DNA from: a virus | Lineage: Duplodnaviria > Caudoviricetes | DNA length: 64,000 bases | Reading direction: 5' to 3' (one strand) | IMG/VR virus record: IMGVR_UViG_3300025601_000007 | In this document: in pieces, positions 5,106 through 6,596 of the stretch | Layout: the number at the start of each line of letters is the position of its first letter | Numbering within the stretch: position 1 is the first letter of the stretch | Notes under the pieces: generated by a model | What the model saw: the letters and a program-made list of their open reading frames with translations, nothing else | Told to the model about the DNA's origin: nothing | The model's database searches: none | Program-made: the position numbers and the translations under genes

Positions 5106-6596
5106 TTGAAAGAGAGCAAGATAAATAAAGCTTATAAGAATTTCCGCGACGCAGGACGTGCTGCATTGGATGTGTTAAAAAACGAAGGACCAGAAACAGT
5201 ACACGCTGTTAAATTGCTGTTGAAGCTGGGAGTAGGAAAAAAACTAGAGAAAAGTGAAATGCAGTTTCTAAAAGCGCAGTCTGTTGATATAGGGAAAATG
5301 GTTGCGTTATTTGGTTTGTTTATTATCCCAGGCGGGTCGTTAATTACTTTAATCGCTGCTGAGGGTCTAAAAAAAATAGGAATCAACCCTTACCCTTCAA
5401 ACCAATCACATTTAAGAGAAAACGAAATGATTAGGAAGCAAATACGTAAGATACTAGCTGAACAAATGCTTGGGAAGCAGGAAATAAGGATGCCTTTTGA
5501 CATGTCAATCCCAGAGGACATTTGGGAGCTTAAAAAATACTTTGATGCAGCAGGTAAGAAGCTATATGTGGTCGGCGGTGCCGTGCGTGATGTTTTAACT
5601 GCTAAACAGATAAAGGATTACGATTTGGCGACTGATGCCACTCCAGAAGAGATGATTAAATTTATCCCAAAACACATCTATACAATATTAGAGGCTGGTA
5701 ATATTTTTCCTGTTGTTCACTTGGTTACTCCAGAAAATGGGAGATACGAGATTGCCACTTTCCGTGTTGATGTCGGAACGGACCACCGTAAACCAGAAAC
5801 TCAGTTCTCTACAATCGACCAGGACGTTAAACGTCGTGACTTGACAATGAATGCGTTGTTCTACGATTTAGACACAAAGGAAATTGTTGACCTGGTGGGC
5901 GGAATCGCTGATATCCAGGCTGGAAGGGTTCGGACAGTGGGAGACCCAACTCAAAGATTTGCCGAGAACCAGATAAGAAAGCTTCGAGCATTAAGATTCA
6001 CAGCTAGAATTGGAAGCAAACTGGACCAGAGCATTCAAGACTCTTTGCTTGCCAACCCTTCTTTGGATGAGGAGGCTCCTGAGGCTATTATGGCAGAGGT
6101 GTTAAAAGGTATTGAGCAAGCTAAAAGTGTAAAGCACTTTATGAGCATGGTATTCAAATTTGGTTTAGACAAGTTTGTTTTTAAGGGGATTAAGACAAAC
6201 CCAAGAGGAATTATTGAGGAAAGGGACCCGACTTTGCTGTATGCTTCTCTCTTTAGAAACTCAGACCCAGGAAAATTGAGAGATGCGATTAAATCAAGGT
6301 TGAAATATTCTGATGACTTTGCAAAGCGCGTTATGTTTTTTGTAAAATTTATAGACTTTGAGCCAGGAAGAATTATGGAGTTCTACAAGCTTAATCAAGC
6401 TACAGCACATGTGTCTGAGGAAGATTTGGTGAGAGCAGGGGAGATTCTTGGATACGATAGCAAAATGGTTTCGGCGTTCTTTGAGTTCGCCCCAATTGCT
6501 GACGCAGATGAGCTGATGGCTCAAGGCTTTAAAGGCCAGGAGCTAGGGAAAGCAATGAAGGCGGTTGAGGTGAAACACTTCCTAAACCTATTATAG
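5106..6596 (+). CDS. Class II tRNA nucleotidyltransferase (CCA/poly(A) polymerase family) with N-terminal LETM1-like hydrophobic domain
   Basis: VGGAVRD..DYDLATDA, YEIATFR, RRDLTMNAL and ENQIRKLRALRF motifs; N-terminal DIGKMVALFGLFIIPGGSL segment; TTG start. Confidence 0.88.
   Translation: MKESKINKAYKNFRDAGRAALDVLKNEGPETVHAVKLLLKLGVGKKLEKSEMQFLKAQSVDIGKMVALFGLFIIPGGSLITLIAAEGLKKIGINPYPSNQSHLRENEMIRKQIRKILAEQMLGKQEIRMPFDMSIPEDIWELKKYFDAAGKKLYVVGGAVRDVLTAKQIKDYDLATDATPEEMIKFIPKHIYTILEAGNIFPVVHLVTPENGRYEIATFRVDVGTDHRKPETQFSTIDQDVKRRDLTMNALFYDLDTKEIVDLVGGIADIQAGRVRTVGDPTQRFAENQIRKLRALRFTARIGSKLDQSIQDSLLANPSLDEEAPEAIMAEVLKGIEQAKSVKHFMSMVFKFGLDKFVFKGIKTNPRGIIEERDPTLLYASLFRNSDPGKLRDAIKSRLKYSDDFAKRVMFFVKFIDFEPGRIMEFYKLNQATAHVSEEDLVRAGEILGYDSKMVSAFFEFAPIADADELMAQGFKGQELGKAMKAVEVKHFLNLL

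Follow-up and report, generated by a model that had tools for sequence, protein, structure and literature searches.

Class II CCA-adding enzymes carry in motif D the sequence EDxxR, the textbook case of a protein serving as the template of a polymerase, and a gate at helix J restricts the canonical enzymes to three additions. To our knowledge, the Asp and Arg of EDxxR have been treated as irreplaceable in nature, and the Asp is present in all cellular class II enzymes and unchanged in all four known class II activities. It has been reported that motif D makes Watson-Crick-like bonds with CTP and ATP (PMC2532741, PMC11784652) and that engineering of this protein template changes nucleotide choice (PMC2532741, PMC3925840, PMC11784652), so the background given in the initial annotation of this DNA, namely that EDxxR templates the reaction and that its engineering shifts nucleotide selection, is upheld by these papers. 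In a library of the human enzyme varied at E164, D165 and R168 (RVK codons, Asn included) and selected in vivo for A-repair or CCA-repair, D165 and R168 were never replaced (PMC11784652). The flexible loop, which lies between the B/A motif and motif B, is needed for the switch from C to A; human enzymes with D103A, G104A or R105A added only CC, R105 being required for A addition (PMC2910056). The beta-turn positions the 3' end, and motif E, which possibly contacts the primer, stabilizes the helix-turn within motif D (PMC7730189). According to the account of Cho et al. 2007 given in PMC8208693, the R194A/M197A/E198A mutant of GstCCA adds poly(A) tails.

In the window, the whole stretch of 64,000 nucleotides that was analyzed, a gene on the plus strand (5106..6596) encodes a class II (CCA-type) RNA 3'-nucleotidyltransferase of 496 aa (P0001; Pfam PF01743). 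The carrier is a giant salt-lake phage of the T4-like jumbo type. The start codon of the gene is TTG, which lines up in the alignment with the ATG starts of the homologues. The head domain was matched by PolyA_pol (PF01743) at an E-value of 1.6e-32, and the AF2 model (pLDDT 81 overall and above 85 in the core) gave full-length Foldseek matches to 4x4w, 1miv, 6qy6 and 5hc9 over 370-405 columns, with E-values down to 2.5e-15. The model retains the seahorse fold, with the head-neck-body-tail architecture that binds the top half of tRNA in CCA enzymes.

P0001 has the features by which the class II superfamily is recognized, that is, a Pol-beta-like head, GGxVRD, DxD, the RRD of motif B and motif C (D..GG..D). 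It further shares with the class II CCA enzymes (1MIV/1MIW/1MIY from G. stearothermophilus, 6QY6 from Planococcus halocryophilus and 4X4W, human TRNT1) the Glu and Arg of motif D, both Glu residues of motif E, the neck-body-tail part of the fold and, following the B/A motif, a flexible loop of normal length. Motif A (GGAVRD, G157-D162) together with the catalytic D171-Y-D173 (5574..5624, plus strand) and the ribose-selecting motif B (R243-R-D245; 5832..5840, plus strand) are invariant in the clade of 18 members to which P0001 belongs, as are D262, G265-G266 and D269 of motif C, and E287, R291, E326, E331 and K334. Unlike the class II CCA enzymes, the clade has Asn or His for the template Asp, Ala for the motif-E Arg, Pro for the beta-turn Gly and a rewritten loop core, and P0001 is longer at the N-terminus by a hydrophobic module of about 107 aa.

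Motif D of P0001 (E287-N288-Q289-I290-R291; 5964..5978, plus strand) is encoded by GAG AAC CAG ATA AGA and sits within F-A-E-N-Q-I-R-K-L-R-A-L-R-F. In HMMER alignments with PDB chains, ENQIR fell on E153-D154-A-L-R157 of the Bacillus/Geobacillus stearothermophilus CCA enzyme (1miv), and it also aligned on EDPVR of E. coli PAP I (3aqm) and EDYLR of human TRNT1. It is therefore a true motif D, in which the Glu and Arg are present and the templating Asp is replaced by Asn, and the EDxxR of CCA enzymes is lacking. The initial annotation, which had read ENxxR in place of EDxxR in a CCA-type enzyme at this site, was exact, and the alignment of phage homologs that it had proposed gave Asn in all 12 clade homologues at 56-80% identity and His (EHxIR) in the sister branch. 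The residue preceding the template Arg is also changed in the clade, from Leu to Ile (L290I). At least 24 contigs, drawn from different samples, encode a 496-aa protein identical to P0001, and in seven fetched genes the Asn codon was AAC in two and AAT in five, with synonymous variation in the flanking codons too; the His codon was CAC in both EH genes fetched. Given these contigs, the Asn in all 12 homologues and the turnover between AAC and AAT, the base at motif D is secure. Asp occurs in none of the clade members, although GAC is one base step from AAC or CAC. The dN/dS ratio (NG86) was 0.08 for the closest pair of clade genes, more distant pairs being saturated at synonymous sites.

Among 377 relatives obtained from three large searches, motif D was EDxxR in 356, ENxxR in 14 and EHxxR in six, with one unplaceable. 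The non-Asp relatives consist of a single monophyletic lineage (12 ENxIR and six EHxIR) and one singleton. In a quick maximum-likelihood tree, the 12 EN and six EH sequences formed one clade with an SH-aLRT of 100, and each branch was monophyletic and fixed for its own residue. Since the Asp is found in all cellular class II enzymes known to us, it is ancestral wherever the root lies. The singleton (P0222) is an EN protein whose nearest relatives, at no more than 75% identity, are all ED; as a lone sequence among ED relatives, it was not accepted as an independent stable recurrence of EN. Among the 1.84 billion cluster representatives of one library, the EN/EH proteins amounted to three clusters at 50% identity, below which the score fell from 565 to 427 bits and all lower matches were ED. 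Of 79 further IMG/VR phage loci, one (L007) was EH and 72 were ED, the motif pattern being undetected in six, and two huge-phage homologues (635-642-kb) were both ED. A literature search found no mention of ENxxR or EHxxR in published work.

Synteny links the EN window with the EH locus L007: both have the order NAPRTase, NMNAT-like, nucleotidyltransferase, dNMP-kinase-like, ThyA and MazG, at protein identities of 31-47%. The nucleotidyltransferase genes are thus orthologues in related T4-like jumbo phages, and their EN-EH divergence is in line with that of the conserved neighbor genes. On the evidence of these sequences, the Asn/His substitution in motif D is real and has been retained by selection throughout a phage lineage.

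The substitution does not stand alone. Clade-diagnostic columns, taken as those conserved to at least 80% in 241 ED relatives and replaced in the 18 clade members, comprised K199, G202P, the flexible loop, D288N/H, L290I and R327A (82-100% conserved in the ED set). All of these fall in specificity elements, the affected sites being placed by alignment to human, Planococcus and PAP chains. In the beta-turn region (G198-N-I-F-P202-V; 5697..5714, plus strand), which also includes the K199 site, Pro has taken the place of the Gly in the (H/F)-G-(T/V) element in 18/18 clade members, whereas 93% of ED relatives have the Gly. The flexible-loop core D226-H-R-K-P-E-T232 (5781..5801, plus strand) stands where ED relatives have G-R-R-P-D-S-V, so that a loop of the same length carries a rewritten core. 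In a loop alignment that is ambiguous by one residue, R228 corresponds to human R105; EN-branch members retain this Arg, whereas EH-branch members have Ser or Thr instead. In motif E (E326-A327-I-M-A330-E331; 6081..6098, plus strand), the conserved Arg (R194 of GstCCA, R208 of the human enzyme) is Ala in all 18 clade members, vs Arg in 98% of the 241 ED relatives and also in the human, Planococcus and PAP sequences, and E-R-x-x-x-E is therefore not found in P0001. With the register taken from the 1miv alignment numbering and a one-residue insertion in a second alignment, A327, A330 and E331 correspond to R194, M197 and E198 of GstCCA; P0001 thus has Ala at both the R194 and M197 positions and keeps E198. 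Because specificity, primer and termination residues are altered while the catalytic and tRNA-binding parts are kept under strong purifying selection, we read these changes as a functional shift: the clade enzyme is a tRNA-type 3'-nucleotidyltransferase, selected and probably active, in which the machinery for choosing nucleotides and for stopping has probably been rewired.

The nearest relatives are ED-type enzymes of large and huge phages (36-45% identity, hundreds in IMG/VR), including LR745206, LR756502 and Caulobacter, Brevundimonas, Aeromonas and mycobacteriophage genes. They resemble P0001 in the length of the catalytic part plus body, the N-terminal amphipathic helix and the phage setting. 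They differ from the clade in having EDxLR, a Bacillales-type RRP(D/E)SV loop, an (F/H)-G-(V/T) turn and ER..xE, and PF12627 is scored by most of them but not by the EN/EH clade. Engineered GstCCA (Cho, Verlinde and Weiner 2007; polarity swaps and R194A/M197A/E198A) is likewise altered at the template and at helix J/motif E. As far as that work is described in the papers cited here, the clade differs from it in that Asn or His has naturally replaced the Asp while the Arg stayed, and in the retention of E198 (PMC8208693, PMC2532741, PMC3925840). E. coli PAP I (3AQM) belongs to the same superfamily and gave a comparable alignment score; unlike P0001, it has EDxxR, the motif-E Arg and a basic G-[RK]-[RK]-F beta-turn where P0001 has G-N-I-F-P (PMC8208693). 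The PAP signature in the beta-turn, [LIV][LIV]G[RK][RK]Fx[LIV]h[HQL][LIV] (PMC8208693), is absent from P0001, which reads L-E-A-G-N-I-F-P-V-V-H-L without both basic residues, and a poly(A) polymerase was rejected on this ground. P0001 also lacks the hallmark of CC-adding enzymes, a deleted or strongly degenerate flexible loop, since its loop is as long as that of ED relatives.

The N-terminal extension of about 107 aa (5106..5426, plus strand) contains a helix pair of membrane-grade hydrophobicity (M65-I83), with a maximum 19-residue Kyte-Doolittle hydropathy of 2.2. A module of this kind, about 105 aa long, occurs in most EN and all EH members and is absent from P0009, P0011, P0012 and all ED relatives; in the three named proteins the absence is real, because the intergenic gaps are short. 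No Pfam match to the extension was obtained at E up to 10, and Atlas matches to LETM1_RBD-like small phage and bacterial proteins were weak (scores 0.75-0.79) and are leads only, so an assignment as a LETM1 domain was rejected. Next comes an amphipathic helix, IRKQIRKILAE (I109-E119; 5430..5462, plus strand), and the shorter ED relatives begin with the same helix. It ends in Glu and resembles the N-termini of the unrelated neighbor ORFs at 6648 and 7728 (AIRKIVREILIE and IRNLVNQVIKE); N-termini of this kind may be a shared targeting or processing signal. In the ED-type relatives P0056, P0073 and P0109, the hydrophobic module is replaced by an N-terminal cREC_REC domain (PF20274, cyclic-phosphate-processing receiver). 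Another protein, P0122 (metagenomic, 1312 aa), is a fusion of two tandem ED-type CCA modules, separated by a short stretch rich in His and Asp that by eye may be an HD-type domain, with a long C-terminal region to which no domain was assigned; it may be an RNA-repair polyprotein.

Immediately upstream of the nucleotidyltransferase gene, on the opposite strand and divergent from it, lies an NAD salvage set (NAPRTase, 4HBT thioesterase, NMNAT-like CTP_transf_like and NAD synthase; 1-2188 of the window and 3664-7083 of L088), an arrangement common to the EN and EH phages. A 294-aa ORF on the minus strand (4068-4952) carries an LLDGQHRLEA motif reminiscent of ParB/sulfiredoxin-type nuclease domains and gave no Pfam match at E 0.01. 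About 10 kb upstream of the P0001 gene, outside the window, an RlaP nucleotidyltransferase (PF10127, 1.7e-20) and a 385-aa HD plus AAA_33 P-loop kinase protein are encoded on the minus strand (G000:C1:15530-18269, equal to L091 4531-7270). This pair looks like an RNA end-healing kit, with no RNA ligase visible nearby, and RlaP extends damaged RNA ends by one or two nucleotides (PMC12776372).

No standard tRNA was found in the 109-kb record. In a tRNA-like RNA at 44045-44121, the anticodon loop is CUCAUUA (CAU), the T-loop is TTCGATT and the variable arm is long; a 7-bp acceptor stem encloses three hairpins in the fold. CCA is not encoded and T-A8 follows. It was called by ARAGORN only at the relaxed setting -ps90 and had no Rfam match. 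Neither BLAST nor relaxed ARAGORN found a homologue of this RNA in the EH record (G001, 31% complete), and an ED-type contig, IMGVR_UViG_3300043470_001257 (L117, L050), also has a CAU tRNA that is CCA-less and whose variable arm is long; these two results give no support to a specific pairing of the EN/EH enzymes with the tRNA-like RNA. Similar CCA-less CAU tRNA genes with long variable arms were seen on many IMG/VR contigs. The initial annotation had also raised the marking and inactivation of host RNAs, for which we found nothing in support; the RlaP and HD-kinase genes and the CCA-less tRNA-like gene make tRNA end repair or maturation a better fit.

From the observed sequence, conservation, clade structure, purifying selection, fold and gene context, we infer an activity, substrate and product along the following lines. 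With the metal-binding, ribose-selecting, hinge and tRNA-binding body and tail parts unchanged, the enzyme would still bind a tRNA-like acceptor end and polymerize NTPs without a nucleic-acid template. The template Asp, the Leu before the template Arg, the lever loop, the primer-holding beta-turn and the motif-E/helix-J Arg appear to have been rebuilt together. Asn and His, unlike Asp, are neutral and able to donate a hydrogen bond. Base reading would then be done by a neutral residue that is a hydrogen-bond donor as well as an acceptor, beside the retained Glu and Arg, and the helix-J gate on the number of additions would be weakened. The product may depart from CCA by relaxed or shifted base choice, by a partial reaction or by extra additions, in a role that is probably tRNA 3'-end repair or maturation during infection. 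As to the preferred nucleotide, the retained Arg would argue for continued use of C and A, the donor at 288 would tolerate or favor a keto group (U or G), and an open helix J would permit extra additions. A product off strict CCA is favored because Asn and His are neutral donors and neither branch has reverted to Asp by a one-base change, and we put at about even the chance that an active full-length enzyme, with its specificity and stop elements rebuilt together, makes such a product. Since this is a genuine and selected substitution within a broader remodeling of specificity, a non-canonical product is a serious possibility; the suggestion of the initial annotation that the enzyme may add non-CCA tails is plausible on these grounds, although published mutagenesis points both ways. 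On the side of a changed product are the human-enzyme library in which D165 was never replaced (PMC11784652), the human loop mutants that add only CC (PMC2910056) and the poly(A)-adding GstCCA triple mutant (Cho et al. 2007, as given in PMC8208693), of which P0001 has two of the three Ala residues.

The alternative that survives best is that P0001 still makes or repairs CCA from CTP and ATP, with the Asn or His accepting the hydrogen bond of the exocyclic amine. The absence of the motif-E Arg, together with the changes in the loop and beta-turn, would make up for the lost charge of the Asp, and the differences would reflect co-adaptation within the lineage, possibly to unusual phage tRNA-like substrates (cf. 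the Romanomermis enzyme). We regard this as quite possible, though short of an even chance. E. coli PAP I with D212A retains the wild-type A-specificity, and with R215A loses it (PMC2532741); by this analogy, a change of Asp to Asn alone does not predict a non-CCA product. The Arg, the main determinant in PAP I, is retained here (Arg291, as is Glu287), so Asn or His could be a plain neutral acceptor for the amino group of C and A. A backup selection mechanism of CCA enzymes preserves CCA even without the template Arg (PMC2532741), flexible loops differ widely among bona fide CCA enzymes (PMC2910056), and the beta-turn can adapt to armless tRNAs without loss of CCA synthesis (PMC7730189). The paired loss of an acidic and a basic core residue would fit charge compensation, and the gene is the positional counterpart of ED genes in some related contigs. 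P0001 is the sole PF01743 gene in its record (G000, a 109-kb virus fragment estimated to be 31% complete), and no second, canonical ED paralogue was found in this record or in the EH record G001, both 31%-complete fragments; a sole class II gene in each of them fits an ordinary housekeeping CCA role. However, 356 of the 377 relatives keep the Asp, as do all four known class II activities, and several further near-invariant residues are changed together with it. Asn was available in the human-enzyme library and was never selected (PMC11784652), and the EH branch is without the loop Arg matching human R105, which is required for A addition (PMC2910056). The occurrence of CCA-less CAU tRNAs with long variable arms alongside ED-type enzymes also leaves a special substrate link without support.

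A bolder form of the favored reading, a product off strict CCA, would be a fifth natural class II activity, in which a donor-reading (Asn/His) template and an open helix-J stop would yield U-containing, mixed or over-long tails on host tRNAs or phage tRNA-like RNA, possibly after capsid delivery; this we consider rather unlikely. A decaying or non-catalytic protein, which has lost its polymerase function and is kept for RNA binding or as virion cargo, would account for the absence of the template Asp and the motif-E Arg, both otherwise invariant in the core, but it is highly improbable, given metal- and ribose-binding residues invariant in 18 members, the low dN/dS, and an EN-EH gene divergence on par with that of the neighboring conserved genes. 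A one-base sequencing or assembly error, with GAC taken for AAC, has a negligible chance in view of the identical protein on at least 24 contigs, the Asn or His in all 18 clade members and the synonymous variation of the Asn codon.

The EN/EH enzymes are a new, selected variant within a well-known enzyme family. A lineage in which nature has selected Asn or His in place of the template Asp, along with coordinated changes in the lever loop, beta-turn and helix J, is a ready-made evolutionary experiment, which could reveal either how a protein template is rebuilt without a change of product or how a new RNA-tailing specificity originates. It also bears on what jumbo phages use tRNA-end enzymes for, which may be to repair tRNAs, to mature unusual phage tRNAs or to manipulate the host.
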